From Callorhinchus milii (lineage: Eukaryota), in contig NW_024704749.1 of the NCBI RefSeq assembly GCF_018977255.1, positions 9,734,001 through 9,798,000 on the forward strand: a stretch of 64,000 nt of DNA, written 5' to 3'. Position 1 is the first letter of the stretch. Every line of letters begins with the position of its first letter. The translations under genes were made by a program, and so were the position numbers. The notes beneath the pieces are model-generated. The model searched no databases, had not been told where the DNA came from, and saw nothing but the letters and a program-made list of their open reading frames with translations. Shown piece after piece: positions 9,546 to 37,800 of the stretch.

Positions 9546-9851
9546 TTACTTGATGATTCTGAAGTCCGAGTACTCGAGTCGTGGGATGCGCCTCTCTTCG
9601 CCGAAGAGCGCCTCGTCTATCCTGGCGCTGGGGCTGCCGGTGTGCCGGAGCCAGGCCTGCATGGCGCGCACACCGTCCTCGGAGCCCTGCAGCTGCCCCT
9701 GGACCGTGCCCCGCGGCGTGTTCTGCACCCAGCCCCTCAGGCCCAGGCGCCTGGCTTCCTTCTCCGTGTGTTTGCGGAAGAACACCCCCTGGACCTTCCC
9801 GAACACCTCGTAATCCACCGACACGAACAGGGCCTGGCCGCCCAACGACAT
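9546..9851 (-). CDS. ACYP: Acylphosphatase (101 aa), single coding exon
   Basis: GCCGCCATG Kozak at 9851. MSLGGQALFVSVDYEVFGKVQGVFFRKHT...GWVQNTPRGTVQGQLQG...WLRHTGSPSARID has the VQGVxFR phosphate loop with catalytic Arg and the WVxN Asn. ACYP1 vs ACYP2 cannot be decided by eye. Confidence 0.93.
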   Translation of the reverse strand: MSLGGQALFVSVDYEVFGKVQGVFFRKHTEKEARRLGLRGWVQNTPRGTVQGQLQGSEDGVRAMQAWLRHTGSPSARIDEALFGEERRIPRLEYSDFRIIK

Positions 9852-10260
9852 GGCGGCCCCGGCGAAGAGCGGCCGTCCCCCTTGGCAACCGGCCCCGGAA
9901 GGGACGCTCGCGCCGCGCCACAGCAACTGCCACATCCGGGGGACTCGGGGCGGGGGGGGGCCGCCGTTCAGGCGAGCACAGACTTCTGGGAGTTGTCGTG
10001 CGCTTCCGCTTGGGCGGGCGGAGAGCAACGGGCATTGGGAGGGGGTGGGGGGGGCGAGAACTACACGTCCCACAGTGCTTCGCGCCCAACCCAACCCGCC
10101 CGCCTACCCGTCAGGCTCTGCGGTGGCGCCTGACCGTTGCACGAAAGGCGGGAAAAAAAAAGCCCCGAAGCGTTTGAGGATTTGTCGAGTCGAGTCGGTG
10201 GTGGTCCCGGTGACTCTCGCCACTGAGTCAGGAGGTGGTGGGCACGAACCCGGTGAAGAT
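9852..10260. promoter_or_regulatory. CpG-island promoter of the acylphosphatase gene, with two ZNF143/THAP11-type ACTACAnnTCCCA motifs
   Basis: GC/CpG-rich. ACTACACGTCCCACAGTGC at 10060-10078 (+). Variant ACGACAACTCCCAGAAGTC at about 9981-9999 (-). GGGCGG boxes are also present. Confidence 0.65.
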
Positions 10261-14049: not shown

Positions 14050-14760
14050 AAAACTGTTTGTGGTTGTGATTGATCACTTCCCATTGCCTGAAAACCACCT
14101 GGTGTGGCTGATGAAATGGATTCTGTGCTGAGTTTAAACCTCAGGAGAGGTTTGATACTGAGCAGCTACTCTGAGTCTCTGCTGGCAAATTCCTGGAGGA
14201 CGGAAGCGAGGGATCCAACCCCAGTCTCCCAAGTGTTTACCGGGAACGGCTCTGCCTTTTTCCTGCGGGAAAACTATCTGCAGAAAATACAGAAAATATT
14301 GTTTTTCAACCTATGTTTCCATGTTGTTTCAGCCTCGACACAGAATGAGTTTCAGGTCAATGAGTGTCGTCGATTCGTTGGACGCACTGACTTTAGAAGA
14401 ACACTCAGCTAAAGCGAGTCAGCGTTGTAAGTAAATAAATCCATTTCTTCTAATTTCATCTCTCCAGAACAGGGAAAGGTTTGCTGTGTGACTCCTGTCA
14501 TTGCATTCCCCCAGGACAGAGCGAACCAAAGCAGTGATTTGGTTTGGTCTGCCAGAGCGACATATACCACTTATGTAATTCCAGAGTGTATTAAACGCAG
14601 GGTGGCAAGAGCCAAGGCCAGTGTCACCAGAGTGTGGGTTGGGGGCACTGCCAATCGAAACCGCAGAACTTGCATTGGAAGTACTATCTGGCGTGCTTCC
14701 TACTGCTTGTCCTGCTAAGGCCACCATTACTCCCAGGTGGTTTCACTTCCAACTGGGTTC
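14050..14760. promoter_or_regulatory. Putative immune-type promoter/enhancer of the FIIND-CARD gene
   Basis: TGTGGT (RUNX) next to CACTTCC (Ets/PU.1) at about 14058-14080. GGCAAATTCC (NF-kB-like) at about 14183. Perfect Ets-IRF composite GGAAGTGAAACC on the minus strand at 14739-14750. These are short motifs, so chance matches are possible. Confidence 0.35.
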
Positions 14761-17700
14761 TGAGTCTGCTGATAATCGAGATTGAACTGACCGGTGATGA
14801 TTTTCTTTGCGATTCGGAATCTTTCTCTTTCTTTCCACTTAAAACCTCAGTTAACTGACTCAAAAGAGAAATTCAGTCTTAATTTAGAAGCTGGATTTCT
14901 GCAGGGATGGTTGAAGGAGACCTTCATAATTCTGAAGGGAATAGGAAGAATCTATATCCACTGGTCAGCAAGTCAATGGGTTGAGCCCATTGATTTAAGA
15001 TAATTAAGAAATAAGCCGTAGCTTTTTTTACACAAGGGATGAATAGTATGTGGAGATCCCATGGCATGGTGATTAAAATAGGATCCATGTAAGCTTTCCA
15101 AGAGGGAACTAGATGGAGATCTAAATAGGAAGGTTTTGCAGGGCTTTGGGGAACAGCAGGCAAATGGGACTGGATGGATTTGTCTTTAAATTTTTTGAAG
15201 CTCGTCAGACAGACACAAAGTACGCCTCCTGCGGTCATGTTGGCTAGCAAGTTACAAAATTGTTTTCATACAGGTAACCTTCCATTTGCAATATTTATTG
15301 AAGACATGCTATCAAGCACATTGGCAATCACACACAAACTAATGTTTTTGCTAATATTTGCCTTGAGGACTTCATCAGCCACTCCATTCAGGCTGAACAA
15401 TTGATTGAGAATGAAAGAAGTTACTAATTCAATAGTCTGCCTGTTTGAAATAATTTACCCACAAGATAATAATAATTTAGGTGTTGTATAGTTGATGAGA
15501 GTTAAGAATCTGTGAATTGACCCTACCTAATCTGCTGTGTTTTGTTTTTCAGTCGTTGACGATGATGTCATATACTTAGGTAATAATAATAATCCTTGCA
15601 TTTGATAGAATGTCATATCAGCAGAATGTCTCAAGGCTCTTGACAGGATGTACTGGACAGTGTGGTTTCTTGGTAACGTGTGTGTTACATTTTATATTGG
15701 AAGTAAATTGAGAATCCTATTGTGACTCAAGCACCTCTTTATATAAAAAAAGGATTTCAAATCTTTTACCTGGTTCGATTCCCAAATGCAAATAAAGCTT
15801 CTTGAGATGCTCTCCACTGTTGCACGAGATCAGGTGCAACTGAGATGCAACCATTGCCCTATAATGGTGGTCTCTCTCTTGAAAGCTGATGTATATTGTG
15901 AAGGCTTTTGCATCACAGCGTGGGATGTAAATCTCCAGAAATCCTATATACATCTCAGTAAATAAGCAAACTTAAGCAAACTGTGTGTAAAGATCAACAA
16001 TTTGTTATTGTATGAGGAACATCATTAAAATTATTGACTTCTGAAAAATCTCTCAGAGCAAGGAAGTTTGAGGTAATTGAAGAGTGTAGTGACTGGATAT
16101 TTCAATTCCACTGCAGGAATGTACGATACAATCAATTTACATTTATGTAGACCTACCACATCAGGAGGATGGCTCAGAGAGTACAGTTATGAATGTAGAA
16201 CCTTGTGTTGTGCTGCTTCTTTGGAAGTGTGGTTGAGACAGTTGACATATCTCCATTAGCTTTAAACTACTTTTTATGGTAGGTCTTTTTCTGTTGCGGT
16301 GAGTTAGTCAAACATATAGCACTTCAGAGTAAAGATTATTGATTGAAGCTACTGATGTAACATTTTTTACTTGTTTATTTGAGGATTACCATTAAGATTA
16401 TATATGTCTGAAACATGTATTTGCCTCATGTGTAGGAAAATCCAAGTCTGCCAATCGCCATTCCAATACAGGTATTCTTTATTAATTATTTTTCAGCTTG
16501 TGCTCCATATCTGTAGAATCTTGCCATGGTAAATATCTTTACAAATGTTGCTCATGCATTGGATTTAAAATGCTTCTGAGATTACAGTATTTGATGATTT
16601 TTTTACTCATGGGATGAGGACTGTCACCCTGCTTTTCTGTGATAATAATCCTTGCATTTCATACAGCATCTTTTCATTTCCTCGAGACATCTCAAAGCGC
16701 TCCACAGAATATACTGTAAAGATATACTCTAATCACTGGGGAAAGAAGGGGTTTTCTGTGAGGAAACTGCACCCATGTTGCTCAGAATCTGTCCAATCAG
16801 TAGCCAAGGGAATCTCTGATTATCCATCTCTGTCGAGGTTGATGCTCCAGTGCAGTGCTGTTAAGAGGCTTCAGTCAAGAAAACTTGTCCGCTGATGAGA
16901 GCACTATTGTTTGTCTAACTAGGATTATCCTACCCTTTAGGGCTTCAGCTTGCGGGGTAGCAGGAGTGGAGTGGGAAGAATCCCTGCTCCCCGTCTGCCC
17001 CTCCCTCAGTCCTGCTGACAAGCCAGGCTGGACTTTCACCAGAGGTGCGGTGGATTACTGCTGACACGTCTGACTCAGCAATGTTTCAGTTTCATAGTCC
17101 AATATAATAAAATAATATTACTATTTTTTGTTACAGTGCCTTATCACATTGTCAAAACGCAACACAGAATGTATTGCAAAGTGTAATGATTGTGTGTTTT
17201 TAGGCAAACGTGGCAACCAATGTGCTCGCAGCAATGTCCCACAAACAGCCATGACGTGAATGACCAGTTTTTATTTGGGGGTTTGTTGAGCAGGACACTG
17301 GGAGAAATTCCCTTCTCGATTCGAATGGTGCAGGATTTTTAACGTCCATTTGACATTAGCAACGCAATGTCCTGGAGTACTGCAGCCCCGCTGGCTCTGG
17401 AATTTGGCAAGATGTCAAACAACAATCATATGAAGCCTATTAATATCCATTTCATCCACCAAGTATGAAGGAGTTGGGTTGACATTGGGCAGGACATTGT
17501 GTACAGCATCGACATCCCCTTGCACATTTTTCTTGTAGTAATTTGTATTTGTACTTGTACATCTGTACAAGATGATCAGAATTAATCCCCCGCCCCCCCC
17601 CCCCCAGCGCCTCATGCTATCACTACTGTGAGAACATGAAAGTTTTTGTTACTTTCTGTGCACATTGTTGGACACTAAAGTTAGTTTATTTTGATTCATA

Positions 17701-20700
17701 TTATTCTACTTTCTAAAGCCGGACGGGAGAGAAGACCAGTCAAGGAATTTGAGGAATACAAAAGAATTTCTTGTGAGCTTTGTGGGGAAGAGGTAAGTGC
17801 ATAAACAGCAAAGTCTTTTACTGTTTCCAGTTAACTGTGGTGGTGTTTCACGTCTCTCCATGTTACCTTCAAGGATTCATCAAAATGGATTATGGTGGAA
17901 CCCAAAGTTCATTCAGAAAATGAGATGATGTTCAGGTAAAATAAAGCAAAATCTAACACTGAATGATTAAGTTCTGACCTCTTCTCTCTCGGTTATATCT
18001 AATAATAATAATGCTTGCATTTGATAGTGTTCCTTATGGCGTTCAGACCTCGCAAAGCACTTCACAGAATATTCTGTAAAGTGAATTAATTGTGATGGAT
18101 GCTGACATCATTTTTGTGCATTATCAATCAGGCTCACTCCAAAGTCTCCCACAAAGAATAGACAGGATTGAGAATGTGTCTCTTTCAGAAAACAGAATAA
18201 CTTTTGTTAGTCTTTGAAGCAATGCAGGACTTGGCCAAAAAAAGGTAATTTGCGATTTGAGGCATGAGATAACAGAGCACAGTTGAACGCTGAGAAAGCA
18301 AGTGCCATACTGAAGGTCCCACAATATGCTCATCCTAGATAAAATTTGATCTGATTTAAGACTGTCCCCTCACAATGTGTTCGGCAGTGCCAAAGCTGTA
18401 TAGCTTTGTACAGTTCCGTTCCAATAGCAAATGGCCATTTTCCTTGCATACCTGATTTAACCTTGCCAGCCAACGGTTCAATCTGTGTCACTGTAAAACA
18501 GTGGCCATATACATAGGGGGCCAAGACCATTGTTTTTCACAGCTGCGTACAACATCTCCGCAAGCAGCAGTTTTCGACTTGGGTAAGAGAAATACATAAC
18601 CCCCTCTGAAAGGAAGCAGAGAAAAGTTATCGGTGGTCAAAATGGCAGGCAGTCTTAAGTGGAGTGTATGGGGTCTGTACAGACCCTCCTCCTTTTTGTT
18701 GTATATTTTAATGACCCGCAAGCTAAAGCTCTTCCTGCTGTCCTCTCTCAGCTTACTCCCTCTCTAATTTCTGCATGTAAAACATTTACAGTTTTCTATC
18801 TATCGTTGACAATTGGTTTCTTTTTTCCTGATCATTTGACATTTTCACATTTGCCTCTGATTTTCCTGGTTTAATTTGCTGACATTTTCTGCTATTCCTA
18901 AGGTATGTATAGTTGCTTGCTTATCCTGTTTTGGATGGACGAAGACTGATTTATGCTGCTGAAGTAGTCTGTTTGTGGTGGGTGGCTAACAAAGCTCATG
19001 AGTCTGTCTCCTTCCCCACGAAGAAGCAAATTAGTCTAGATTGAGAACTTGTGTCTTTCAGAATACAAAATAATTTGTTAGTCATTTGTAGCAATGCATA
19101 AATTGGCAGATAAATATTAATAGTGCAATATATTAGAATTGACAATTCACACCCTTTTTAATCATTTTTGTTTAGTGTTTCTCTTCCAGGTACAGGCGAT
19201 TATGAATGTTCTAAGACTGGACTGAGATGGGAAACCAATACAAAAACTATCATTTCCTACAGATATGGCTCATGGAAGAAAGATGTTTCTATGATGAATA
19301 GCGATCTGCAAATCTGTGGACCATTGTTTGATTTCCACGTAAAAGGACAGGTCACAGCTATTCACCTGCCTCATTTTTTATGCTTGAAAGGTACATTATT
19401 TTCATTATTTCCTCTTAATTCAAACTTTTCATTCGCAATCAAGTGTTTTGATTTTTAGTTCAAGCTGATAATTACCCACTAAAGGGTGAATCCAATCATT
19501 GGGATAAACGCAAGTCCCAATCCATGTTCCACTTGACAGCTGCAGCTGCCCTGTGCAACTGTTGGGACAGCTTTTGGCAGGAGCTCAAAATATGGAACAA
19601 CAACTGGAGTGGGACAGAGACTAATTGCAGAGGTGATAGGAGCAGTAGCTATTGTGCATGGCATACATTGCAACAGCTTCAATAGGTAACATGGCGCAAC
19701 TTCACTGTGGAACTGGGTTGTCCTGACTCATACTGGCAATGTTGAATATTCATTCTCATTGTATATGCACAGCCTGTTTACAGATTCCTTACTAGAGATA
19801 TAATAATAATCTTTGTATTTGATAAGTGTTGTTTGCCATTGTAATGTCTCAAGAACAAATGGAGTTTACATAGCGTGCATATATGTGTCTCGGAGAGCTT
19901 TATTGGGAGAAACTCCCTCATTTTTTAATAATACCATGGGATAAGATTAACCACTACCTAATCAGGCAAATGGGTCCTCAGTTTAATGCCTGATCTGAAG
20001 GAAGGCACCACTAACAATACAGCATTCAGAGGGTTGCCAATTCAAGCCACAAGTCAGGGACTTTGAGCTCACACCATAGGCTAATACTCCAGTGCAATGC
20101 TGGGGATGCACTGCATTGTCAGAGGTGCCACCTTTGAAGAAGGCATCAAACTGAGGTCCCACCTGTTCGTGTGGACGTTAAAGATCTCCTGACGTTATTC
20201 AAAAAGAGGTGTCCTCTCCAGCAATGTCCCAGATAAAATTGGTCATTACTAACATGGCTATAGGAAATTGCTGTACCACGTTTGCCTACTAATATACAGT
20301 CACTACATTTTAAAAGTTAAATCTTGTGAAGAACTTTGAGAGTGTGACGACATGATGTGATGCATTGTATGAAATGCAAGAATTATCATTTCTGAGAATA
20401 TTCTTCACTGAAGTATGGAAAACCACATTTTGTTGTGTAGGTTGCACACCTAAGGATGAATTGAAAATTATTCATGTGAAAGATGGGAACTATTCACTCA
20501 TGAACCCATCAGCAATCAATGGCAGCCATGTGGAACTGAAGGCACCAAGTTTTTCTCTGCTGAGTGTTGTTATTTCGAAGGTTTCCTCGCGGCTGTTCCC
20601 TGTTCACACTCTGGCAATGATTTATCGGACACGGATGGTTGGAGAATTAACCCTCCACGTCTACTTTGTACCGAATGAATGCTCAATAATAAAGGTAATT

Positions 20701-23582
20701 TCTCTCTACTGCTGAAACTCATCAAATCATTCAAGGTTAAAATGAATCTTGAGGATACTAACCACTGAGTCTCTTTGCAGGCAGTTAACGAGCAAGAATC
20801 AGGTGCTATGAAAATTGAGAAACCTCCTCAGATAAAATCACTCAGTTATGGCAAAACCTATTTCTTGACCAGCCCTGCCAACGTCAATATTCTTCCACCA
20901 GTAAGTGCTGCTACAGTGTGCGTGGATGGCTTATTTCAGAAACATCTATTGGTGTGAGGGACAGATTTGACCTGAAAAGAGAAATTGCATGAAAGGACAC
21001 TGATCTCAACCATATTGATTCTGTGACGGGCAGACTATATTCTGGAAGAATGAAATCAAAATTAGAAGGGCATTCTTCATCCAAACTAATCTTGTGAGAT
21101 CATCAATTTTAGTGGAATCAGCATGTTTGGCAATAGTGCCTATTTAATATTAGTATAATGTTGTTGATGAAGGTGAAACAGTAGGGGCCCCACATAGAAT
21201 CCAGGGAAACCTTTCAGAGCTACCCATTTCTTAGATGCAAGTTTCAGAGAAAGGGCAGCTTGGCCAGAGCTTTTGTACAGCCTCAGCCACTGCCCCACCC
21301 TCTGACCTGGCTATACCCTGATTGACTAGCAGCTGCCTGAAGTGATTCCACCCCTTCAGGGTTCTGTAGACACATGGTCGACTGAGCAGGGATTCTGAGA
21401 TAACCACCATCTTAGGCTTTCTCTTTATCAACCACTTCAGCGCTCCAAGACACTATTCCGCATGAAGGGTGCTATATAAATGCAGGACCTTGTCATTATA
21501 ACCAGTTGCCGATAGTTTGGCAGAAATGGCTGGGTTGAAAACCATCTTGTACCCAGGAAAATCTCCTGTCTGGATGCACCCAGGAGAATATTGCACAATT
21601 AAAGTCTTTTTTTGTACTTTTGTTGCAGGCTATCAACTTCTGTTACTTGAGGTCTGATCAACGCCAACAGTACTGTGAAGTACATAGCCAAGATGAGAAT
21701 GCCAGCATCGAGTTAAAACTACGGCCGGAAAAAAAGAGCGATCCTCTCTGGGTGACCTTGCTGAGGCCAAGTAAGCATTGAAATGATCCATCCATAGTGT
21801 AGCAGTTTAACATACCAATGTCCTATGGCAGGGGACTAGAAAATACTGTTATGGTCCATTTGGCTGACCCCAAAGTAATTTAATCCATGATTATGTTATT
21901 ATTTTAAATATACTTTGATGTTGTGATGGGGAGATGACAGGGGTGGATATTCTCGAAAGTTGAAATCAAATGGGCTGAAGGGCCTTCTTAATCTGAACCA
22001 ATCTTGATTTCAATCAAATTAGAATAAATTCTCAGAGAAACCTTTCTAATTGCCATGAACTACAATATATTTTTGTTTCCTTAGTGGAGCTTCAAGTTCC
22101 TCCCAAAGTACCTTTGACTGCAAACCTTGGTAAGTCTTGGAGATTTTCTGCAGGGTAATTGTTAAAGTCATCTTATTCTAGTCAAAAGCCCTGGTGTTGG
22201 GATGAGTGTTTTGACAACTGCAATGTCTGATTTGCTCAGAAATGGTTGACTTTTCAGACCTAACAATACTTGCTTTTAAATAGACATGAACAATCCCATG
22301 ACACATTTGAAAAGAGATTTCTACTGGTGTCTTGGTCCATGATCTTTCAGATAAATTGGTCATTCACTTTGATGTGAAGTGCTATACAAATGTAGTTTGT
22401 TGTTGTGCCAAATTGGGATGCAGCTCAGCTTTTATTTTGGACTCACAGTTCCAAGGAATATGGTAAACATTCCTTGTTCTGTAACAGAATTGCCATAAAC
22501 ACCAGTGGTTTCCAATCTGATTTGTTTAGATCTTTGAAGTAGATTATAGTGCTAGTGATATAAAAGCAGTGGAAATTGCCTCCAGAGGCTTGGGTTAATT
22601 TTACACACTCACACCAATGTTACGTGGCTCACTCTATAGCATGGGAATAAGTTTAAAATGCAGGAATTTAGGATTTAACAAAAGTATAGCAGGAACAGAA
22701 TGGTAACTTTATATCTCTGTTGGGAAATTTCACTGTTGTTATTAAGGAAAGTGGATTGCAATCCTAATTCCACTTGTTGCTGTTGCAGACCCCCTCTTAC
22801 TAATGTTTTAATTCTCAGGGCTCATCTTGGAGGCAGTGTAAGGTATCATTGGGGTATGAAATCTTAAGTGTTTTGTAGTCACTTATCTCCGAGGTGTTCC
22901 TCTACTGCAGTGGTGGCCAACCAATAAAATACAATTTTCTTGATTGAATGTTTCTTGATTTATGGCATAAAACGAAAAATATTCAATCAAGAAAAAAAAT
23001 GGAAATAAAATATAGCCTCGGCTAATGTGAATGTTGAGCGGGCCACTTCTTGACACCCCCCACGGACCATTTTGGGGTTGGCCACCACTGCTCTATTGTG
23101 TGGTGAGAACCAGAACTAGATGTACAGTACTCCTAATATTGTGCTGAGTCAAAAAGCAATCTTGTATCTCATCTACTGTGCAGATTCAGAGAATACTGTC
23201 AAAGACTTTTGTTTAAAAAGATGTTGTTTTACCTTTTAATTCTAAGCAAATTTGCACAAAAGACATTTTTTTAAATTGTCACAATATCTATACTCCTGGC
23301 TGTGTCTGATACAGAACTGTTTCTACAGCTGTGGAGTTCATTAATCGGCACAAAAAAAGTATCATTGAGAGACTTGGAGTAATTGACCCTTACCTTAGAC
23401 ACTTGCTCGAAGAAAAAGTGATCAACGAGGATGAAGAAGAGGAAATTCGTATCAATCCAAAACGTACGAGAAGTAATGAAACACTAGTGCGAATGGTAAT
23501 GAAAAAAGGGCCACATGCCCAAGAGCAGCTTTACAGAGCCATGGAGACACATGATCCCTTCCTTGTAAAAGATTTGCAGTAA
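14345..23582 (+). CDS. CARD8-like FIIND (ZU5-UPA)-CARD inflammasome protein, about 434 aa, 12 coding exons (gene A)
   Basis: Exons 14345-14355 and 15209-15273 (both tentative), then 15553-15579, 16436-16471, 17719-17792, 17874-17935, 19176-19390, 20441-20694, 20781-20900, 21629-21770, 22085-22129 and 23329-23582. Phases are consistent throughout. FIIND signatures: GDYECSKTGLRW, GPLFD, IHLPHFLC, IIHVK, HVELKAPSF|SLL, LHVYFVPN, KPP, LWVTLLRP. C-terminal CARD: EFINRHKKSII...DPFLVKDLQ*. Confidence 0.88.
17120..17350 (-). mobile_element. SINE (DeuSINE-like) fragment
   Basis: Contains GCAATGTCCCACAAACAGCC and GGATTTTTAACGTCCA, both shared with other copies. Confidence 0.65.
20045..20390 (+). mobile_element. 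Near full-length diverged SINE
   Basis: TTCAAGCC...CAGTGCAATGCTGGGGATGCACTGCATTGTCAGAGGTGCC...GGACGTTAAAGATC...AAATGCAAGAATTAT. Homologous to copies at about 27915-28270, 30520-30730 and 58600-58900 (-). Confidence 0.7.
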
Positions 23583-24753
23583 AAATTGACAAGCAACAGA
23601 CAAGGTGAGTTCCTGTTGACAAAGGTGTTGCAATTTTGTAAATTCCTCTGGTTTGAGCTTTAATAACCTGCTTAAGTATAGCTGAGTGCAAAGCAAGGTG
23701 TCAGGGGCCTTGGGACATTCTCCCAATGTGAATGATGCTATATAAATGTAAATCTGTATTGTAAAGAGGGCTACCACTTTCAACCTCACCCAGCCTTCCT
23801 GCTCTTGAGCCCATACAGTATGTGCTGATTTCCTATAGATACAAACAAGCCCAGAGTAGCCTGGAACAAACAGGCTTTCATTTCACTGTTTCAGGACAAA
23901 GGATTGTATACAATAGTTTTACTCAAGACAAAATATACACAACAAAATGGTAAGAAATAAGTAAACAAAATAAAAGAGAATATAGGGCAGATACAAGCCA
24001 GTATATGTTTTTCTCTACATTACACTGACACAGAGGCAAAATCAATATCACTGACCCTAACAAAACTTTCAATGTTTTACTTCACTTTTTAATTTGGCCG
24101 CCAACAATTTAAACTCTTTGAATTGTGCATGGACAGTGCAAATAAACTCTGTGACTTTCCCTTACTTAAGGCTGAATCTGTCTGTTCCGCATTTCTCCTA
24201 CTGCATTGTTTCCCTAAATTCCTCCTGTCTTCTGAGTCACTTTTGTAAAACAATTCATTTCACCCTATTTTTCTTGATTAAGTGTTGTCATTTCTTAAGA
24301 ATTTATTTTAAAAAATAGATCTTAAAGTTGGTTTGATATCCACAAAAAAAAATTTAGATCACAAGAAATTCCAAATCGGAAAAGTCTTTTAAAGTGTTTC
24401 TTGTGGCAGATTTTGTGGTGGTAAGGAGTTGTATAGACCTTCTTTAATGACTGAGTCATAGAAACTGAATATTCAAAACTAGGCAATTGCAGCAATTTTT
24501 TGCTATGCAAATATCCATGGAAAAATGCTAATAGCTATTAAAAAATGTTCACTATTGACAGCTTTAAAAATGCTCCATAGTATTATTTGCTTAACATGTG
24601 CAATATTAAATGCAAATTATTTCTTATTTCAGGAACAGAAAATTGAGGATCTAATAAGATTGTTTTCTGCTGAAGAGTGATTTGTTTCTCTGGTGAATAA
24701 AACTGTTTTGATGATTCTAATATGTTGTATTTTAGTGCAGCAGAAACCAACAT

Positions 24754-27700
24754 TTAAGAAAATCTGTAGCCAATTAGAAAACCTGAAATTATACCAAAAA
24801 TTATACAAACCACATGAAGAAACCACATTCCTTCAGTTCTACGTGTTGCAGAGAAGCTCCCTGGCTGTACAGTTGTTAAACCAAATTGTCTTATACAGTT
24901 ATTACATAATTTGTACGAGTAGTTAAATTCCAAGTTCTGCACAAAGTCAGAATTATTTTTTAGCAATGCTTTATACAGTTCATCTTCTGCATCTTCTCCC
25001 TTATTCATTACTAGTTGAAGCATGGCTTTATTTTGTTGAATTTCTACATTATGAGTGACAATTTCGGACTCTTCAGATTTAGTGATAACATTTGTATCTC
25101 GTAAATGCAACAGGATAGGTTGAATTGTTTTGAGACAACAAATTATTTCCTTTTTGTGTCTATGAACAAAGTCTACACATCTTTTCAACTTCTTAAACAT
25201 ATCTGAAAGAAAAGCACAATGGTTAGAGAACTGTAAATTATATTGTTTATAATGACTGCTGCTGTTTTAAAAGGATAAAAAGAAGCGTTTTAAACTAGTT
25301 CCAGATACCCATATGTGTCAAAGGTAACATATTATAATAATCTTTGCATTTGATATCAAGCCTTACCCATTCATCAAGATGTCTTAATGCACTTTACACA
25401 ATTTTTTTTGCAAAGTGCGGTGAATCTGTATTGGAAGGAAATATGGCAGCCAATTTGTACACAGCATTGCATTCTAATGAAATAGAATGAACAGAAAATA
25501 CAGATTTCTTTCCCCAAACTATTATTTTCTTTAAATGGTTATGCATGTTTATTTTATATCTGAGTTTAGGTACATTAGCACTGACCTGGTCGTAACAATA
25601 TTTCCCACAACACATTGAGCTTGCTTCTTTCAGTCAAACACAGCTTAATGCTATATTTCGACTCCTGGATATAAACCTCATGGAATGGTTGCTGTTGTTT
25701 ATACCTGAAGTAGCTGAATTTTATATCCTATAATAACAAGAATTTGAGAGAGTATAATGCACAGGAACATGTGTTCAATGAAGGTACAGTCGGTGTAGCA
25801 ATAACATGGCAATTATCTGTAGAAAACCGATAAACTGACTTTACAATGACAATTGTTTTAATAAAATAATGAAAATAATTATTTCCTTATAGTTTTGTAT
25901 TTGAATCAAGATTTTTTTTAATTGTTTCAAGGATCTATTCATTTTGAAGAATCTATCAATAGTAAATAAAAACTTATCACAATAAATTCTGATCTGTCAA
26001 TACGTTATATGCCTGAGTGACCAATTTTATTTGGAGGATTGTTGACCCAAGACGCTTACCAGTGGTTTTATAGCTACATTTGAAAAGGATGTCAGCCTAT
26101 ACTTCTTGCCATAGTAAACTGATGTTATTTGTGGAGGCTTTTGAATTTTCAGGGACCTTATTTCTTTTTCCTGCAAGTCAACTGCCTGAAAAGAGTTAGA
26201 AAAAGATAACTTTTGTTTCCTTATATGATTATATTTTAAAGCAAAATACAAAAAAAACACCACAATAAGTAATCTGCACCTAAATAGTTCTCAGATGCTC
26301 TATTCTAATTATCACTGACACTGACAGAAAAGCAACATTCATATTAATTAATTACATATTAATTAGATTCACATTCATATTCATTATTGGTCTGGCAAGA
26401 ACCACTGAAATCAGGGAGAATTAGGTTGGAGGGGATAGCAATGGTAGGGAGTGGTAAAACTTAGGGTTTGAAGATCTTGGTCTTTCTGTTGGGTTATTGG
26501 AAGCCGGTAGAGGCTGGCGAGGGTGCGTATGAAGTGTGCAAAAATTCCTGCTTATTTTTAGATGGATAACCGAAAGTGATTATTAATTATTTCTATTAGT
26601 TTGACAACTATAAACATTAAGGTTTTGTAGCAAAATCCACAAATATTTTCAAGTACAGTACAACGTCTCATTGTTACTGAAGTTTCATTTAAATGCACAA
26701 GCTATGTATTAACTTTGAAATATTTAACTTTCCATAGTTAAATCACACCTATCACTCCGCCTCGCCCCCTCCTTAGTCTCCTTCAAGTCCCGCCTCAAAA
26801 CCCTCCTCTTCGACCATGCCACCAGCCACCCCACCCTTTCCCCTCCCCTCCCTTCTCCCCCCCTGACCCCAGCTCGGGTCTGAAATGCTGTACACTGTCC
26901 AGTGCCTTGGGACATTCTCCTGATGTGAAAGACGCTATATAAATGTAATCTTATTGTTGTTGTTAAAAAATAATATAAAAATTGAATATTTTCAGTTACC
27001 TGTATTAATGAGCCATCATTTGGTAACACATAGACATGAAGAATTGAACAATCAGCTCGAAATGTTTGATATATCATTATGACAGCATGAATAGCCACCT
27101 GATGGACCTGACCAAGGATGACACCCATCAAGGTCAACGGTTGATTTCTTTGCACGACATGAGATAAATGGATTTCTGATGGATTTTCCAATACTAAGGT
27201 ATCATCTCTGAGGCACACAATACAATATCTCGCAGAATGTATTGCTTCCCCTGCACCTAAGAATATTCAAGTTTTATCAATTGCATCAATAAGGTATATT
27301 ACACCACATTCACAGTAAAATAAGTCACTTCACTTTGGAGCCTGAGGCTGCACCAGTACATATCAGGTGTATGGATGGCAATTAAGGCTCTTAAAGATTG
27401 TAATGTATCAAGGCCAGAAATGTAGTGCAATGCTTAATAATTGACTTCCCTAATAGAACTATTACTACTTGAAATATTTACATCCCATAATCAAGGTAAG
27501 GCTATCAAACTGGATTATAATTTATACAATTAATAGTCACAGGAAAGTGCAACCTGATCAGATACTTAATATCTGAATTCAAAGCTTTGAAATTTTCTGG
27601 GCTCATGCAACAATAGCAAGTTAGTTCTTTGATCAAACATGCATTATAAGGCATTGGGTGGTTGTGGCACTCTTTTGGAAAAGCAGCAAAGCAAAAATAA

Positions 27701-28890
27701 CAAATGGATAATCTTTGCTTTAATATAGTGCTTATAATGCTAAAACATTTCAAATTGCTTCACTGAGATTTGCTGTCAAGTGCAGTAATTGTTGGCAAAC
27801 GTGGCAGCCAATGTGCATACAGCATAATAATAGGCAAAATTTGGAAAACACCATAAAAGACCAAACAAAGCCTTTAGAAAGTCGTACTTCCTCTCATCAA
27901 CTGATTGTAATGCCCTTCTGGCTTAGTTAGTAACTCTTGTCTCTAGGTGATGAGGCTCTTGGTTCAAGCCCCCCGTCGAAAGCTCATGGATCTAGATTGA
28001 CACTACAGCGGTGCATGTGTGGGGGGTGGGGAGCACTGTATTTTTGAAGATAGTACCCGTTGCATCAATGGTTAAACTAAGCTCTGCCTGTTCAGGTGGT
28101 TATTAAAGATCCCATAACACTATTGTAAAATAATGTCCTGCCCAACATTCTTCCATTTAAATTAGTCATTCACTTCATGACTGTGGGACTCGAGGCAAGA
28201 CTACTGCGTTTTCCTACAAATAGTCATGATTTTGATAGCAATTCCCTGTGAAGCACTGGAGACATTTTTACCTTTTACTAATGTCAAACTAACGAAGTAA
28301 TATACAGCATGAGAAAACAGACCACCGCATGTAATAAACAATCAGAGAAATATTAAACATATACAACTTTACAAGATACCTGATTCACAAATGAAATGAG
28401 GAAGATGAACAGCAGCAATATCACCATAACTAACACGAATGTTGAACAATGGTCCTCCGATTATCCAACATTCTCTTTGCACATCAGAAATATAGTCATC
28501 CCAGGAGTTATACTCGTAAAAGATTCTAGCATTGGATTTCGATTCCCATCTCAGTCCTGTTTCAGCACATTCATAATTGCCTTTCTCTGGTAAGGTAATA
28601 CTTTCAAAGAATATTAAAAATGTTAATATGGGCACTGATTTTAAGTAAATAGAATCAAAATTCATACACAATACTTCTTATGATATTTGCAATTCCTGCC
28701 ATATTTTGTCCCATTTACAACAACTTGCATTTACATAGTGCTCTTCAAAAAGGTAACATCTCAGAGTATCGGTTACAAACTACAATGAATGGAGCTAAGA
28801 TTGCACAAATTTTACTTTCAGAACTTACCAGAATTTCCCATTTGCATCTTCTGGAATAGTCGGCTTAACAATGATCCACTTTAGTTTATC
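24754..28890 (-). CDS. FIIND#2-CARD-hydrophobic tail module of gene B
   Basis: GNYECAETGLRW...GGPLFNI...VHLPHFIC; LHVYVLPND; KPPQI; LWEILLRP. CARD DFVHRHKKEII...LYKALLKNNSDFVQNL. Tail MWFLHVVCIIFGIISGFLIGYRFS*. Exon sizes 62/221/257/126/142 parallel gene A (62/215/254/120/142). Confidence 0.9.
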
Positions 28891-31800
28891 CTGGAAACGA
28901 TGAAAATAATGTATGAAAGAATTCCAGCGTTAACAATGTATAAAGTTGAAAGTTTAAACACGGTGTAATTGTGTCACCTTTCTAATCTTGGGTATTCTAC
29001 AGGGACAGTGTTCCTTTTCAAAGTAACAGACTACATCTGTAATGCCTCTGCACACTGCTGTTGGAAATAGATACAATACAGTAAGCAATCAGACTATTCC
29101 CCCAAGAAAGATGCGCCTCATTCTGCTTCAACACATTAGCTGGATACATAGTGACCTTGGCTGAAGACGAGGAGTTCAAGAATCTTGCCTTTAATGGGGA
29201 TGCAAATGAGCAGTGTACTGTGGCAATAGCAGATGTAAGATATCATCCCCTCAATAAAAAGGGTCAAGGCAACAGTCAACAAGGAGCTGAAGTACCTAAA
29301 AACAATGGTGAAAGTCTCCAACGACGACAATATTGGTTGCCCGACATGCAAAGAAGCATTTAGCACAATCAGAGCCATTGAAAGAAATGGAAGAAGCAGC
29401 TAAGTATCTGGATAAGATACAACCACTAACTGTCCCTAACTGCAATATAAGAAAAACAGTGAAGGCTGCTCTTTTAAAGCAACAAATATTAAGGGTTTAC
29501 ATAATGAAATATCTTTCATGCACTGCTAAAGCAAAATAGTAAAATGTTACTGAATGAATTACCAGGAGCTTCAAGAAACTGCATTTGTACACAGATTTCA
29601 GGTCCCAGCGTAGTGCACTGCTGACCGGTTTTCACCGCTGAAATAAAGTAAAAGACATTTCACTAAAAAAATCAGAGTTGTGATAAGAGAAAGAAAAAAC
29701 CTGGAAATACAGTTGAGTTTGTAATGGTATTATATAATAATAATAAATCTTGCATTTGATATATTCTTCTAACTGCAAAACGTTAGCAGTTCCAATCTAG
29801 TCCAAGACTAAATGAGATCTACAAACACACTATATAGATGTATATCGTTTCTTTAGGACCGAGACACCACTAACCAGAGAGGATTGATAAATCCTTTATC
29901 CTGTTACACACTGCAAGGGACATCGCATAACAGCTTCTGCAGCTACTGATGCTCCCCTCCTTACAAAATCTGTCTACATTTTTCTTCAATGTGTGGACCC
30001 TGTTCGCACGAAGTATCACGTAGGAGCCTTTATTAATTACGAAGTGACCCAGACTAACAGGCCAGGGTGATTTTGTAATAAAGGAAGTGACCTAGACTTG
30101 TTAGTGTTACCTGAATACGAGGGTGAAGATTTCAAATTTTCTGTTTGTACCGCAATATCTGAGGCCACAATTCCCTGCTTTTGAAGAAGTAATTGATCTG
30201 AAATACAAAAGTAATAATAACTATGAATAACACAGTGCCAAATCATTAAGAGCTCATTCTTGCACTTTCTGGCTTTTTATATTTTTATATTTTAATAGCT
30301 ACTGCCTTAAATTAAGTGGTTGAACAAAAATAAATAAATATACAAGATATTTACCTAAATCAATAAAAGATTGTATATTGTCTGTTTCTGTAGCAGAATC
30401 AAGCAGAAATGCCCTGAATTCCTCTGGTGTATATTTACCTGAAAGATAAAAGCAACATCAATTATAAAGTACGTTGAAAAAGCATTTCTATCACCATCAA
30501 ACAGAGAAAACAATAAAGTAGAGTGGATCAATTGGTAGATCTCTCACCTCTGAGTCAATTCTCACAATTATGGGATTCAAGCCCCACATCATGACATAGA
30601 CAAAGTCTAAATTGAGATTCTAGTGCAGTGCTGGGGATGTATTGCATTGTTGGAAGTCCTGTCCTTTAGATGAGAAGTTGAACCAAGGCCCCAACTGTCT
30701 ATTCAAGTGGATGTTAAAGATCCCAATTTCCAACAGAAAGAGGTGGGCTGGGTTGCAAAGGAGCTAAGGGAAATGAATTAATGGCTTTATCGGTAATTAA
30801 AGATGGCTTTATCGGCGATGATAACTTATGAGATGGTGAGGCCCTGGTAATCACCAGATCAAGGAGGTGACCCTGGAAACACATCCCTCCTCCACCTTGC
30901 TAGAAAGGCATAAAGTAAATGGCTGATCAAAATGAATATATACAATATTTATTTAAATCAGCAAAATATTGTGTATATGTTTCTGTAGTGGTATCAGACA
31001 GAAATGCCCTTGGGGTTTTTTTTTACCTGAAATATAAAGTCAACACCGATTATAAACCACCCTTACTGGCAACTTGTTCCAGTCACTAATTACCTGCTGA
31101 TGATGTTTAGCACACCACATGAGCTATTAGTGTGATGCTTGTCTCCTTAAAGGACTATCCTGCACTCTGCTTTTACAGAGTTTTGACACAATCTATATAG
31201 GCCTCTAAGCATTTAAAATACTAATATACAGGCTTACATTAATGAAAAAGATTTTAAATGTACCTGGGTAAGGGGCTGAATAATGTAAAAATGTGACATT
31301 TAGTACTGACAATACACTGATGAGATTTTTAGACAAGTCTTTCAGGCCGACAAATTATTTTCAATAACAGCTAGAAGATAATTTGTTGCTGGTGCAGAAC
31401 AATTGCTGTGTTTATCTACATAACATTATACAGGATTTCTGTGTTTTGGTGTGGGAGGGGGGCAGAGTCTGAGTGAGGGGGAGCTCTGTAAAGAACGGAG
31501 TGCAGTCAGAGGGGTGGAAAGGGAGAAAGGAGACTGGAAGGAATGCTCGGGAACTCTGCTCTGGAAACTGGTAGAGACTCAAGACCTTTCGAACTGTAGC
31601 TGTGAAAAGAGCCGAAACAACATATTGACTTGTAACAGTCATTCTCTTTCTTAATAGCACTTGCATCAGCGAAGCGTGGTTAAATCTACAATCTTTAATT
31701 GCTCCGAGATGCTACCCGCATGAAGCAGACTATATTATATATATATACAGCAAGTTGTTGCTGTATCTCTGTGGGTAACTGGACTCTGTTAATTACAATT

Positions 31801-34800
31801 ACAACAACATCTGAATTAGACTGTCGCTGCGATTTCTTTTTTAAGAAGATTCTCAATCCTGTAGCATTAATATTATCCATGCAGGTGCCTGAGCTGAGCA
31901 AGACAGTTGGATACAACTCGTCCATTCTCAGGGGACAGAATTTGTGACACATTCATGTACAGATAGTAAATTACATCCCAATTTCCAATACCCCTAAATA
32001 GTTCTTGGACTTGAAGCAAATTAAGAGACCAGCGTAGTCACACATTTCAACATAAATGTACACAACATTTACCTAAAGCAGTGTGAAAAGATTCTATGCT
32101 GTCCATTTCTGTAGTAGAATCTAACAGGAGTGTTCTATATTCCTCCAGAGTTGCTTTATCTAAAATATAAAAAAACATCAGTTACAAAGCATACTGAAAA
32201 AGTATGAGTTTCAATCTCTCAAACCAATTCCATTGTTGCTAAATCAGTTGTAGTTTGTGTGTAGAGGAGCTGGGGGGAACGGCAAGGTGGGTATTGGAGA
32301 AATTCTTCTCATATCACTGCTGAAACAGATATAGATTTAATGAATAATTTTACTTAGTTGCGAAGTTGGAAATTTTAATCTTTCTGTTTCTTTACCCATT
32401 TTTTTTCCCAAGAGCTTGATTATCTGAAATGTAAAGGAATACCATGAAGAGAACTGACGGTTCAATGACATTGAAACAAAACAATGTTAAGATAAAACAA
32501 AAGTTAAAACAAAATAGTTTGTATCCATATATAAGTGAGAAACAAGCATGACCCTTCTCATGGCGTATTGAATGAAAAAGTTTGAAATGTTAGGTGATTG
32601 AGAATGAAAATTTTAATCTTTCTACTCTTTCACCTATGTGTTCTCCGAGAACTTCATTATCTGAAATGTAAAGATACTGGCATTTAGGGATAATAACACA
32701 ACAACAACTTCCATTTATATAGCACCCTTCATGCGGGTTAGAGTCTCAGAGTGCTTAATAGAAGAGACGGAAGATGTTTTTCAGACCCTTAAACCTTTTG
32801 TTATCAATGTTGAATCATTCAGTCCATATATTTGGCCAATTATGTTGTTAAACATGAAGCATTATGTGAGCTACCGTTCAACAAATATTTAAGACTGTTA
32901 ATATTCCTTAATTATAATTATGGTGAACATATTTATAGAAATAACTTATTTTGGGAAATGCACATAAGAGGTAGGAAATAAGGTAGGAGACATTGGAAAA
33001 GGACGGAGGAGGTGGAGGGGAAGGCATTGATATCCTCCATCCAGTACCAACCCTCATAACAGTCTAATACTGGATCTGGACTCCCCCTCTCATCCAGAAC
33101 TTCCACAGTTCAACCATTTCTGAGGTCTGCCCACACCTCAACAAAGACCTATGATCTTAATAACCCCATTCATTGAGGTCCAGATTGTTTAAAAGACTCA
33201 TCAAGGTGTTAAAAAAGTGCCCTTTGTCTTTGAAACAATATCTCTGACTATCTTAGTTCTCAACACATTTGTATCAGAATGTTTAGAAGACGATGCCTTT
33301 TTTAAAAAAATTCCATGAAGTGGCTTGACAGCTTTTGATTAAAGAACATAAAATGTTAAGTTCAAGAATAAATAAATTATCTAATTGGATATTATTCAGT
33401 GTTTTTCAGTTTTAGATATGATGCTAAAAAAAGAATAGACGTGTGTACATGTAGACACTGAACAACTTTTACCTGAATCAGTTTGAAATGGAGTTTCTTC
33501 CGTTTGTGTACCTATATAATTGAACGGAGCTCTGCCTTCCCCAAAAGCTTGTTTGTCTGAAATACAAAGTCAACCCATTTAGGAAATATGACCTAATTGA
33601 GAGATCCTCATGTGAAAGATCACTGGTGTAAGCAATCAATGCGTGGTTATAATATTGAAATAGAACAAAATAGATATTTCTAAAAGAAAAAATAAACCTT
33701 TTTCTGAATCAAGATGTTGAGATTCTGTTGTCTCTGTCTGTATACCGATATCACATAACACGGTACCTTGATCTCCAAGAGTTTTTATAACTGAAATACA
33801 AAGGCAAAAATATTTTTAAATAATTGCACTAAAATACCAAATCTTACTTAAAATGTCATACGAAAAATCTTTGCTAAAGCCTTTTTTCTCTTGGGGGGAA
33901 AAGTCAAAGGACCCAAAGTTTATTTGCATTCCCCAAGCTCAAAGACCAATGCCAGAGGGGCAGAACAAGAATAAAAGTACAGCTCTTTTACAGCGTCTCA
34001 GGTCTATGCTTACATATCTATAATTTAGCTGGACATTTGCAGCTAACAGTAACAACTTCAGTCGGAATTCAATGGCCACTAAAACATACACTATAAAATG
34101 AATACTGAATACAAAAAATGAATACAAAAGAATTAATAAAATAAATTCAGGAATGAAAGAGAAGGCAAAATACATCTTCTGAACCTTTACCTTTCTGAAT
34201 AGATAGAAACTGCTCTTGAATGGAATCAGGAATGGTTACTGGTGCTTTTAAGAAAAATACAGATTTGTTAGTTCTATTATAAACATCCAACTTCTTTTTT
34301 TGTGAATTTGAAAATTACAAACTAAATAAAAATTCTGTTCCAGCTGTCTGATTGTGAAGAAAGACCAATGAAGAGGTGGTCTCATCAAGAACTTGATTTG
34401 CATTGCTGTATAGCAATGACTTGGACTTGAATAGATTTTTCCATGTTTCATGGACAAAGATTGCTTCAAATCAATGACATGGATCAATGAGCAGGAACGA
34501 AAGGAGGGGAATTTCTGGGCGCTGACCAAAGGCACGGTCAAATAAATAAGATTTCAGAGGGTTTTGAAGAAAGCAGACGCAAAGTGAAGGGATGAGTTCT
34601 GGAGAATGAGGGCACAGTGACTGAAAGCTTGGTCGCTGATAAACGATAATCATTGTGTTTGATATAGCAGCTCATCACATTGTTGTGGCTAGGGAATTGA
34701 GCAATAGTTCAGGAGTGAGATTTTTGGGGCAGGTAGAGTACAACTGTGAGGAGATTTGAAGATTCGGACAAGGATCATGCATGTACTGAAGGTGCAGAAA

Positions 34801-37800
34801 TTATTTAACGGATATATTTCCAGGTAAAGCATTCACATATAGATATCCCAAATAAAATTAAATATGCATACCTATCTGATGACAAGATCTTTGGTCATCA
34901 ATTGAATCCACTTTTGCATCTTCACAAGGATCGGAAACACCTAAAATATTCTTGGCTTCTAATGAAAACAAAACTAAAGATTTTATTTGTTGTTTGACAT
35001 CAGTTTTTGCAACTTGATATGTGTGAACTCAAGCACTTGACTAGCAGCACAGTGCAGTCAGTGGGTTTATGCCAACAGACTGGCGAATCAAAAGCACATC
35101 AACAAGGGCCTAACCCTAACCCCAAGTAGACATCTAAAGACATTTCAATAAGACACTAACACAATCCTAAACAACTTTCTGTCAATGTATAGGATATAGC
35201 AGCAAGGAGATAAATAAGGCATTATTTAGGGTGGAGCATTCTTAAACATAGTACTAAAATACCTGGTTCTGATATTGCAGTTTCCAGCATTGATTTGACT
35301 TCGGCTAAAACGCTGCTATGTTTACATTCGATTTCTGCATCATGAACAGATTTACTTGTTACCACAATAATCTATAAAGATATTTCCTTTCCCACATACA
35401 AATAATATTTTTCAAGATATTAAATAACTGGATTAAATAGAGATGAAAACGGTTGTAATACTTCAAAAAGAAACTATCCAAAATTAAGGAGGAACCAACT
35501 CTAATTTCATTGTCAGATGTGATTCAAAACCAGACTGCACACCAGAGAAAATTGAACATTTCCTGAGGGCATGTTATAATAATCTTTGCATTTGATATAA
35601 CATTGAAACATCTCAAAGCACTGAATGCAAGGATTATTATATTACCCTTATCTACATGCACTGCCACTTTTAATGACCTGTACACCAATTGTGATTGGAA
35701 TTATTTTGAAAGGTATTATTGTTGGTAATAACCAAGCCTGCATAAAAGATGGACGAATGAAGTTGTTTTCATTATAAGATTACGACATTAAGATTTAGTA
35801 GCAACTGGCTTATATCAGAATGTTTTAGTTAAAGTAAGTACATACAAACAATTCTATAAACAAAAAGTTAGAAACGTACCTGACTGATTATCCATTTCTT
35901 CAAGTATATGTTTGCAAACATCATCTTCATCTGAAATACATTTAAGATGTAAAATGGTCATATCATGTCCCTGAATTGCATTAGGTACGTATTCCTCTCT
36001 ACTCAGTTACCAAGATATTTTCCTATTTATGTTTCCAATATACTTGTATAATTCACAAATAGCAATATAGATTATAATGAATGAAAAAAATTAAAATATA
36101 AATTTACTAAAATGTTTATGTCATAGATATTTGCTCTATATGAAGTATGACATGACTATTCTCATTATAAACATATACAGATTTGGCACAATGACATCTG
36201 GCAAAAATGGTGCACATGTCTTTTCCTTCCCCCAAAAAAAGTTTAGCCAAAAGTTGAATTTAAGAAAATAAGTAAATTTATACCTGATTGATCATGAGGC
36301 AATCCCAAATTTTCCAGTAACATTCTAACTTGGCATAAAAGAACTCTATATTTGCAGATACGCTTTGAACCTGGAGGAATACAAGAGTTCAAATATTTAC
36401 ATGAAATTACAAAGCAGGATGATTGACATAAAACATGATTTTGGTTCATAGCTAAGAAGAGATGACCAAATAAGTGACTCACAGTTTAAAGCGGTCATCA
36501 TGCACACACCACTAACTATACCTGATGGATGGGATGATACAAGGAAATTTGATTTCACAGATGGAGGTTTGCAAACATCTTCTCCATCTGAAATATAGTT
36601 ACAGTGTTTCACTTTACAGTATATTCCGTGAAGAGCTTTGAGACATCTCAACGACATGATAGTGCACTATATCAAACTCAAGGATTTTTATTATTATTAT
36701 TCTTTAGCTTTTCAATCTATTTCAACCAAAGCAACATACATTACAATTTGTTGCATCGATTAAATATGTTCAACATTTTTTGCAATTACTTAAATGTAGT
36801 GAAGAATATTATTTGAAGATGAGTATCCCTGAAGTAAAACACTAAAATTATACCTAGTTGATAGTGAGATGGTCGTACTTTTTCCAGTAGTGTTATGACT
36901 TCACATAATTCAGCTCTATGCTTACAAACTTCTGATTCTGAAAAAATGCAAGAATTATTATCATTAGATAAAAACAATTTTGCAATTCTGATCTTCACTA
37001 ATATTTTTTCTCACATTACAAATAAAACTATGATAATTCTTCACAACAGATATCTCTTCTAAGGACCTCTTCAGATTCTTTTCCCCAGTCCCACAGACAG
37101 CTGGAACATAGAAAGTGCTAAGTTCTATCCACATCAACATGTTAGACTGACTGTATATGCCACCTGAAAAGGATGGGGTGTCAAAATTCTGTACCATAAT
37201 CTCCTATCAGAGGGAAGCTTCATCCAGGAACAATGCCCTCTGCATAACTCAGAGATCAAGAAGTACAAAAAGAAAATAAACCTTACCTCCATTGGAATCT
37301 ATAGTTTCATGTTGTATAGCTTGTGTAGCAGCTGCCATATCTGTTTCTTCCTCAAAAGGTATCACATCTAAAAATGTATTTAAATGTTAAACACATTTAA
37401 CAAATACAGTACCGCAGTACCAATACTGTATACTATAACATATCAGGCTATGTTTCTGAAAGTTTGTTAACTGAAAGAAGAAATAAGTGATGAAGGTTAT
37501 AGCAATTAATTATTTAACTATAATCACATTAGTTTACAAAAGACAAATTGACTGCCCAATTCTCCGTAGATAGCAAAGAATATGATAGTGGTACTATGTG
37601 GGAAGAAACATTGGTAATCAATTTTCCAAGCATAATGCCAAAATTGTTGAATGTTATTGAATGTTCATAAATTTAATTACAAACAATACAGGATACATGA
37701 TAGTATATAAGGGTTTCAAATTCTTTTTTTATTGATTTTGTCTGAAGATTGCAATCCTGAAAATAGGAGCAATAGAATGCAGTGAATATTGATAAAAGTA

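Follow-up and report, generated by a model that had tools for sequence, protein, structure and literature searches.

Does a FIIND-CARD gene of the chimaera Callorhinchus milii end in a genuine tail anchor, or does its reading frame simply run on by chance beyond the CARD? The question arises from two genes that lie tail to tail in the window, as we call the whole stretch of 64,000 nucleotides that was analysed. Gene A ends right at its CARD, its last ORF (23310-23582, plus strand) closing KDLQ*. Gene B, on the minus strand, stays open for 57 codons past its CARD (24927-24757). The ending of gene B that had been quoted from the letters alone was confirmed, as was the spacing of four between the glycines of its hydrophobic stretch, which are residues 137, 141 and 145 of P0001, the product of the last exon. 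The parts that bear on the question are the following:

14345..23582, plus strand: gene A (P0007/P0157), which faces gene B tail to tail and is an ordinary FIIND-CARD gene of the soluble, CARD8-like sort.
25202-24754, minus strand: last exon of gene B, encoding the 149-residue P0001, with a Pfam CARD at residues 11-92.
24928..25173, minus strand: CARD (Pfam PF00619, E 7.5e-9; best phmmer matches CARD8, E 7e-4; Foldseek match of the catshark model to 6xkj, rmsd 0.6).
24883..24927, minus strand: conserved post-CARD segment with a CxxC, 11 of 15 residues identical to the ray.
24829..24882, minus strand: variable spacer from the post-CARD segment to the helix, 3 of 18 residues identical to the ray, with pLDDT below 50 at residues 388-402 of the catshark model.
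24766..24828, minus strand: predicted C-terminal transmembrane helix (residues 1346-1366 of the modelled protein), with an invariant Trp and GxxxGxxxG.
24754..24765, minus strand: three-residue C-terminal element plus stop codon; the element has 3-8 residues in the four species, with net charge +1, 0, 0 and 0.
24828 (Met), 24759-24757 (last Ser) and 24756-24754 (stop), minus strand: landmarks of the tail as read from the last exon.
24624..24753, minus strand: 3' UTR, to the limit of the spliced RNA contig (record 9 of run X2 starts at 24624).

The original prediction came with a caveat, that AT-rich read-through can look hydrophobic by chance. In six frames of the window between 24 and 46 kb, 43,396 start positions were counted: 4.3% of them remain open over at least 57 codons, and 0.26% combine this length with an equally hydrophobic end, in a region that includes gene B itself. 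Additional evidence came from four sequencing runs that were compared with window 24400-39880. No run is on record as RNA; X2 was taken as RNA because its contig skips introns. The 1009-letter contig of X2 covers 24624-25202, breaks exactly at the exon acceptor and resumes at 26999-27161, with 267 contig letters between the two pieces; the two intervening FIIND2 exons measure 142 and 126, one base being shared at the boundary. Since the spacing fits these exons, the tail lies in a spliced FIIND2-CARD mRNA, as seen in one run from one study. Run X3, from the study of X2, covers parts of the last exon; the main contig of X1 (24631-25846) is unspliced and could be DNA or pre-mRNA; and X8 shows genomic contigs. 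No AATAAA was found in the gene B 3' UTR as far as the contig reaches.

If the tail were an accident of C. milii, orthologues would be expected to stop at the end of the CARD, but the ray and catshark proteins continue through the tail. Proteins of Narcine bancroftii (ray, P0002) and Scyliorhinus torazame (catshark, P0003) cover the whole of P0001 at 51%, and S. canicula P0159, from a cluster look-up, has the same tail; elsewhere, gene B is matched by fragments from S. torazame, two skates and a stingray. In each of the four species (chimaera, ray and two catsharks), 57-66 residues with a hydrophobic helix follow the CARD. The C. milii tail aligns with a score of 144 to the ray tail and 117 to the catshark tail, compared with shuffle maxima of 47 and 45, so that none of 2000 shuffles reaches the real score in either case. 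In the CARD, 54% of residues are identical to the ray, and in the 15-residue post-CARD segment 73%; the figure falls to 17% for the spacer and rises again to 52% for the helix. P0001 residues Trp127, Gly137, Ile139, Gly141, Leu143, Gly145, Phe148 and Ser149 are invariant in all four species. These identities have the pattern of a helix under selection that follows an unconstrained spacer. The chimaera and elasmobranch lineages split about 400 million years ago. Because the tail is conserved across species, the question of read-through is settled: a chance origin of the tail is ruled out by the spliced RNA, the conservation, and the shuffle and ORF controls.

These results also correct the annotation, as the retrieved C. 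milii database models have neither the tail nor the N-terminal half. Database protein P0004 (UniRef) is 100% identical over the CARD and loses the frame within it, before the tail, and the RefSeq model (P0006/P0156) ends two exons early, at window 26060 on the minus strand. The CARD of CARD8 is the nearest solved relative of the gene B CARD. Two cysteine motifs, the CxxC just after the CARD (24883-24927) and a CC in CARD helix 1 (about 25140-25165, minus strand), are invariant in all four species; a metal site, a disulfide or redox switch, or palmitoylation near the membrane are possible roles.

The helix itself was assessed on simple hydrophobicity scales only. In all four species, 20 residues are free of charge and 3-8 residues then lead to the C-terminus. 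The best 19 residues of the tail have a Kyte-Doolittle mean of 2.4, while no other window of the modelled C. milii protein exceeds 1.67, and the 20-residue helix gives 2.1, 1.62, 1.32 and 1.41 (1.32-1.41 in the catsharks). In the catshark, the best 19 residues of the tail reach 1.55, against 2.31 for a beta-strand window of the same protein. By insertion energy, the tail is the lowest window in each of three proteins scored. The N-terminus is a polar ubiquitin-like domain (UBL), and the remaining hydrophobic windows lie inside FIIND2, where they are strands in the catshark model. AlphaFold2, from an alignment of 42 rows of which 2 include the tail, gave the catshark FIIND2-CARD-tail a pLDDT of 85.7 with a loose spacer and a terminal helix (residues 398-429, pLDDT 84 at 411-420).

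A tail that stays out of the membrane has to be weighed against these data. The conserved segment would then serve helix packing or dimerisation, either folded back against the CARD or bound to a partner in the cytosol. The moderate hydrophobicity of the 20-residue catshark helices is consistent with such a segment, and the likewise conserved CxxC segment ahead of them hints at a folded element, but the uncharged stretch, with a free spacer before it and a few residues after it in all four species, has the layout of a tail anchor, and the insertion energy is lowest at the tail in every protein scored. We regard a non-membrane tail as very unlikely, and expect with good confidence that the predicted helix inserts as a tail anchor; the protein of gene B would then probably sit in an organelle membrane rather than in the cytosol. 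The comparison first drawn with the layout of MAVS and the BCL2 family holds insofar as a tail anchor is the best reading, but the positive flanking that went with it is not conserved. The helix is flanked by Arg in C. milii, whereas the Arg after the helix is Asn in all three elasmobranch sequences, and the charge of the C-terminal element is zero outside one species.

Which organelle is concerned can be judged from published means (mitochondria 1.12, ER 0.21, peroxisome 6.03; PMC5450235), which were set beside the helix hydropathy of 1.3-2.1 and the tail charge. The comparison argues against the peroxisome, which is an unlikely destination, and leaves mitochondria and the ER as candidates; we give the mitochondrial outer membrane an even chance and the ER slightly less than that. 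When the last 40 residues were modelled as a pair, without use of the alignment, the score was 0.14, which speaks neither for nor against a complex. His173 of BNIP3 is a polar residue of its dimer motif. The predicted tail helix of gene B has a His or Asn seven residues ahead of its first Gly. The glycine zipper with this polar residue resembles the tail anchors of BNIP3/NIX, in which dimers form through GxxxG and polar residues precede it by about two helical turns (S172, G180; PMC10883272). The comparison is one of analogy only, and the rest of the protein is unrelated.

The tail belongs to a much larger protein than was first seen. The CARD-tail end stands as originally described, but the gene B that was first seen is only the 3' third of a longer gene encoding UBL, FIIND, linker, FIIND, CARD and tail. 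The model joins 40 GT-AG exons, beginning with an ATG at 49574 and closing with the stop at 24754 (minus strand), into a single open frame of 1369 amino acids, laid out as UBL (14-94), FIIND1 (161-425), an acidic linker (426-925, net charge -57), FIIND2 (951-1220), CARD and tail. The parts upstream of the last exon are:

49292..49574, minus strand: first coding exon, ubiquitin-like domain (Pfam PF00240, E 1.2e-6).
45204..48430, minus strand: four small exons between UBL and FIIND1, 40% identical to the ray.
43037..45080, minus strand: FIIND1 (ZU5-UPA), in five exons whose phases match those of FIIND2.
44064..44072, minus strand: putative autoproteolysis site TF/S of FIIND1 (residues 292-294), kept in all four species with the domain.
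28978..42793, minus strand: acidic linker of about 500 amino acids bearing three [TVILA]QT motifs, built from 23 symmetric phase-1 exons and one phase 1-0 exon.
25586..28890, minus strand: FIIND2 (ZU5-UPA), five exons (28890-28829, 28600-28380, 27256-27000, 26185-26060, 25727-25586).
27132..27140, minus strand: degenerate cleavage site of FIIND2, PLT (SLA in the ray, PLS in the catsharks).

A single HSP spans the modelled protein and the ray protein (14-1369 to 222-1596, 43%), and the ray orthologue contains two each of Pfam PF13553 and PF23679. The first 216 residues of the ray model consist of an integrase-like piece and repeats, and are probably a gene-model fusion. The UBL is also present in the ray, stingray and skate proteins. 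A separate "gene C" at 45080-43037 was dropped as the main reading, since its frame runs on into gene B. A related alternative is that UBL-FIIND1 is apart from FIIND2-CARD-TM, through two genes or an internal start; the anchored product would then be short, CARD8-like and cleavage-dead. In C. milii, two catsharks and two skates the database models are split or partial, and none of the listed contigs, in the compared region of 24400-39880, joins FIIND1 to FIIND2 across the linker. However, the frame is unbroken through all the exons, the ray model has all parts, the stingray model joins UBL, FIIND1 and FIIND2 pieces, and C. milii has Ile where the short catshark model starts with Met. We give this alternative, which is partly independent of the others, a slim chance.

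Four exon-like copies were excluded from the model for a frame break or stop (39014-38950, 37756-37697, 32423-32396, 31026-30944), and the other linker exons are as predicted. Linker exons at window 30355-32660 (minus strand) are local tandem duplicates, and some copies break the frame (32423-32396, 31026-30944), a pattern that suggests exon birth and death in the linker. Directly after the donor of the UBL exon, about 600 bases at window 48660-49250 are nearly pure C/T (G/A on the plus strand); this tract could be real or an assembly artefact. Counted with our own pattern for the LC8 motif, [TVILA]QT motifs number 3-7 per linker, above shuffles in five of five linkers (118, 1, 0, 1 and 9 of 5000), with a weak excess in the C. 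milii linker, the one with 118. They may be LC8 sites of the multivalent-client (ASCIZ) type. In a quick tree of 53 rows (8 chondrichthyan domains and 45 of 116 others, a partial catshark FIIND1 being omitted), the chimaera and elasmobranch copies of FIIND1 come together in a single group, and so do those of FIIND2 (SH-aLRT 100 for each). Both copies therefore predate the chimaera-elasmobranch split.

The two FIINDs differ in the state of their cleavage sites. Self-cleavage of CARD8 depends on a Phe-Ser pair, His252, His270 and Glu279 (PMC3210808). The FIINDs of genes A and B were aligned with 116 other FIINDs, among which His270 is present in 108 and Glu279 in 108. The TFS of FIIND1 is the second commonest site among these (28 of 116). 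After the FIIND1 site stands Ser-Leu-Met-Gly, matching the CARD8-like reference row. His270 of FIIND1 is found only in C. milii, with Tyr in all three elasmobranchs, and an equivalent of Glu279 is absent in all four species. In FIIND2, Leu replaces the buried Phe and Cys replaces His270 in all four species, and the nucleophile is Ala in the ray. From these residues, FIIND1 may cleave and FIIND2 is probably uncut. The CARD stays joined to the tail whichever FIIND cuts, and therefore no soluble UPA-CARD would be released.

The same residues bear on a scaffold of the UNC5 or PIDD/ankyrin kind. Both FIINDs would then stay whole, and binding of a ligand or partner would open ZU5-UPA-CARD so that it brings apoptotic or NF-kB machinery to the organelle. 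Foldseek finds the ZU5-UPA-DD modules of UNC5b and ankyrin (E 1.6e-10 and 4.5e-11), the helper residues of FIIND1 are eroded, and Leu stands at the Phe position of FIIND2 as it does in non-cleaving UNC5b (PMC3210808). Against this, every FIIND1 keeps Phe-Ser, and sequence and fold are much nearer to NLRP1/CARD8 (E 6e-42 and 3e-38; Foldseek 2e-23). A conformational scaffold appears unlikely.

The neighbourhood of gene B suggests a further alternative. The gene A protein is short (436 aa), with about 70 residues ahead of the FIIND, and it keeps SF/S and His270, with Met at the Glu279 position. No decayed tail was found behind the gene A stop, where scores of 23-28 are at shuffle level. Gene B could encode a membrane-bound decoy or brake, anchored and non-signalling, whose uncut FIIND2-CARD traps the UPA-CARD of gene A (or a caspase, or DPP9) while the UBL sets turnover. 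Its position tail to tail with an intact soluble CARD8-like gene and its apparently cleavage-dead FIIND2 are consistent with such a role, and in mammals full-length and N-terminal FIIND pieces hold back C-terminal fragments (PMC11760013). This model leaves unexplained the TF/S of FIIND1 in all four species and the conserved 500-aa QT linker, and the adjacency of the genes is expected from local duplication alone. We consider a decoy somewhat unlikely. Other genes flanking the pair include an acylphosphatase and a Transmemb_17 family gene (Pfam); flanking exons without a Pfam match resemble what we take to be a PXMP2/MPV17-type gene. The flanks lie at window 9546-10103, 5322-5765 and 53330-54160, all on the minus strand.

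Gene B is the only CARD with a tail found in the genome. The single other FIIND locus found there (G000:C11, about 17317800-17323500, L005, minus strand) has SL/S at the site and, in place of a CARD, a death-domain ORF end (Pfam E 7e-8) that stops about 12 codons past the Pfam match, without a tail. Among 152 retrieved proteins (the best 150 of 689 matches with E up to 0.001, plus two earlier ones, a set in which close relatives are hidden behind representatives and truncated models are common), a C-terminal hydrophobic helix by our threshold occurs in two, the ray and catshark orthologues, and a UBL match in three chondrichthyan orthologue models only. The tandem FIIND was rejected as a novelty: all nine other matches picked for two FIIND stretches show two in Pfam, although some may be fused gene models. 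Since two-FIIND proteins occur elsewhere, what sets gene B apart is its tail and its UBL. Four unnamed FIIND proteins (P0012, P0067, P0087, P0128) carry long arrays of up to ten CARDs. Searches for homologues of near length (none of four candidates) and for long proteins (the query itself and one NLRP1, nothing else) yielded no counterpart, and the ESM Atlas gave generic CARD clusters only, at 0.78 or less. Searches of the open-access literature on FIIND, CARD8/NLRP1 and sharks brought up no description of the protein in the titles and passages that they covered; subscription journals and supplements are outside this scope, and the supplementary species table of PMC11258412 could list its shark accession as CARD8/NLRP1-like.

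By homology, the product of gene B is a FIIND-CARD protein, yet it fails the defining features of CARD8 proper and of NLRP1, and it is neither MAVS nor CARD19. NLRP1 and CARD8 are its best sequence matches and, for the catshark model, top the Foldseek list (fold matches 7crw, 7jn7), followed by ankyrin and UNC5b; the likeness, which for NLRP1 concerns its C-terminal half, is a ZU5-UPA (FIIND) followed by a CARD8-like CARD. Gene B differs from CARD8 in its N-terminal UBL, two FIINDs, 500-aa QT linker, degenerate site beside the CARD and C-terminal hydrophobic helix. CARD8 proper has an intact xF/S and His270 beside the CARD, whereas gene B has PLT, SLA, PLS and PLS with Cys in the four species. 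Neither NACHT nor LRR turned up when the ray, stingray, skate and catshark proteins were scanned with Pfam. MAVS has a C-terminal anchor and an N-terminal CARD far from it, and is without a FIIND. Its likeness to the predicted gene B protein is a cytosolic CARD on an integral organelle-membrane protein (PMC8997538), and it is not among the 20 PDB sequences matched by P0001 (E up to 10). CARD19 (BinCARD-2), of the outer mitochondrial membrane, also has a transmembrane helix soon after the CARD, but this is central, a long C-terminus is needed for targeting, and there is no FIIND (PMC8997538). CARD19 gave no match to P0001 in the PDB-sequence search. UNC5 is a receptor with its transmembrane segment ahead of the ZU5-UPA module. 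UNC5b, PIDD and ankyrin share the fold of the ZU5-UPA-death-fold supramodule, but with a death domain instead of a CARD; PIDD, which has two self-cleavage sites (PMC3210808), and ankyrin repeat ZU5 alone, not the whole ZU5-UPA.

Starting from the architecture, the expression and conservation of the tail, and the state of the two cleavage sites, we propose insertion, an organelle, cleavage and partners that together make gene B a CARD8-derived UBL-FIIND1-linker-FIIND2-CARD-TM sensor of cartilaginous fish, tail-anchored and clustering its CARDs on a membrane. As a whole this reading is possible, somewhat short of an even chance. The tail helix would insert in an organelle membrane, leaving the rest of the protein in the cytosol. 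FIIND1 would cleave itself at TF/S, perhaps slowly, a step we favour by a narrow measure, and FIIND2 would stay uncut, keeping the CARD in a ZU5-UPA-CARD pack. After attack by a pathogen or stress, or loss of a UBL partner, the proteasome would destroy the N-terminal UBL-ZU5 piece, freeing UPA1 on the still-tethered fragment. UBL-ZU5 is cast as a degradable tripwire by analogy with functional degradation, the established mechanism of NLRP1/CARD8 (PMC7483925). The glycine zipper, together with LC8 binding at the QT motifs of the linker, would help tethered fragments to cluster, and the clustered CARDs would be shown on the membrane to an inflammatory caspase or an ASC-like adaptor. The net result would be a CARD8-like tripwire with a MAVS-like, membrane-bound output. 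Several points stand against the sensor: cleavage may fail in a FIIND1 without Glu279 and, in elasmobranchs, with Tyr for His270; the catshark helices are marginal, the C. milii QT excess is weak, and most database models are split or truncated; and filament formation may be out of reach for a CARD that lies only about 35 residues from the membrane.

NLRP1 and CARD8 act by releasing a soluble UPA-CARD, and according to a 2022 paper only two CARD proteins, MAVS and CARD19, are integral to the mitochondrial membrane (PMC8997538). More tentatively than for the sensor itself, gene B may represent a class of organelle-tethered FIIND sensor that has existed since the chimaera-shark/ray ancestor, with its own UBL degradation handle and a CARD that is never released, an inflammasome-type tripwire wired as in MAVS. 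If true, a FIIND-CARD protein that combines a tail anchor with a further FIIND and a UBL of its own would show the module working, or restrained, on a membrane, and would allow release and mere clustering to be told apart as the requirement for activation.
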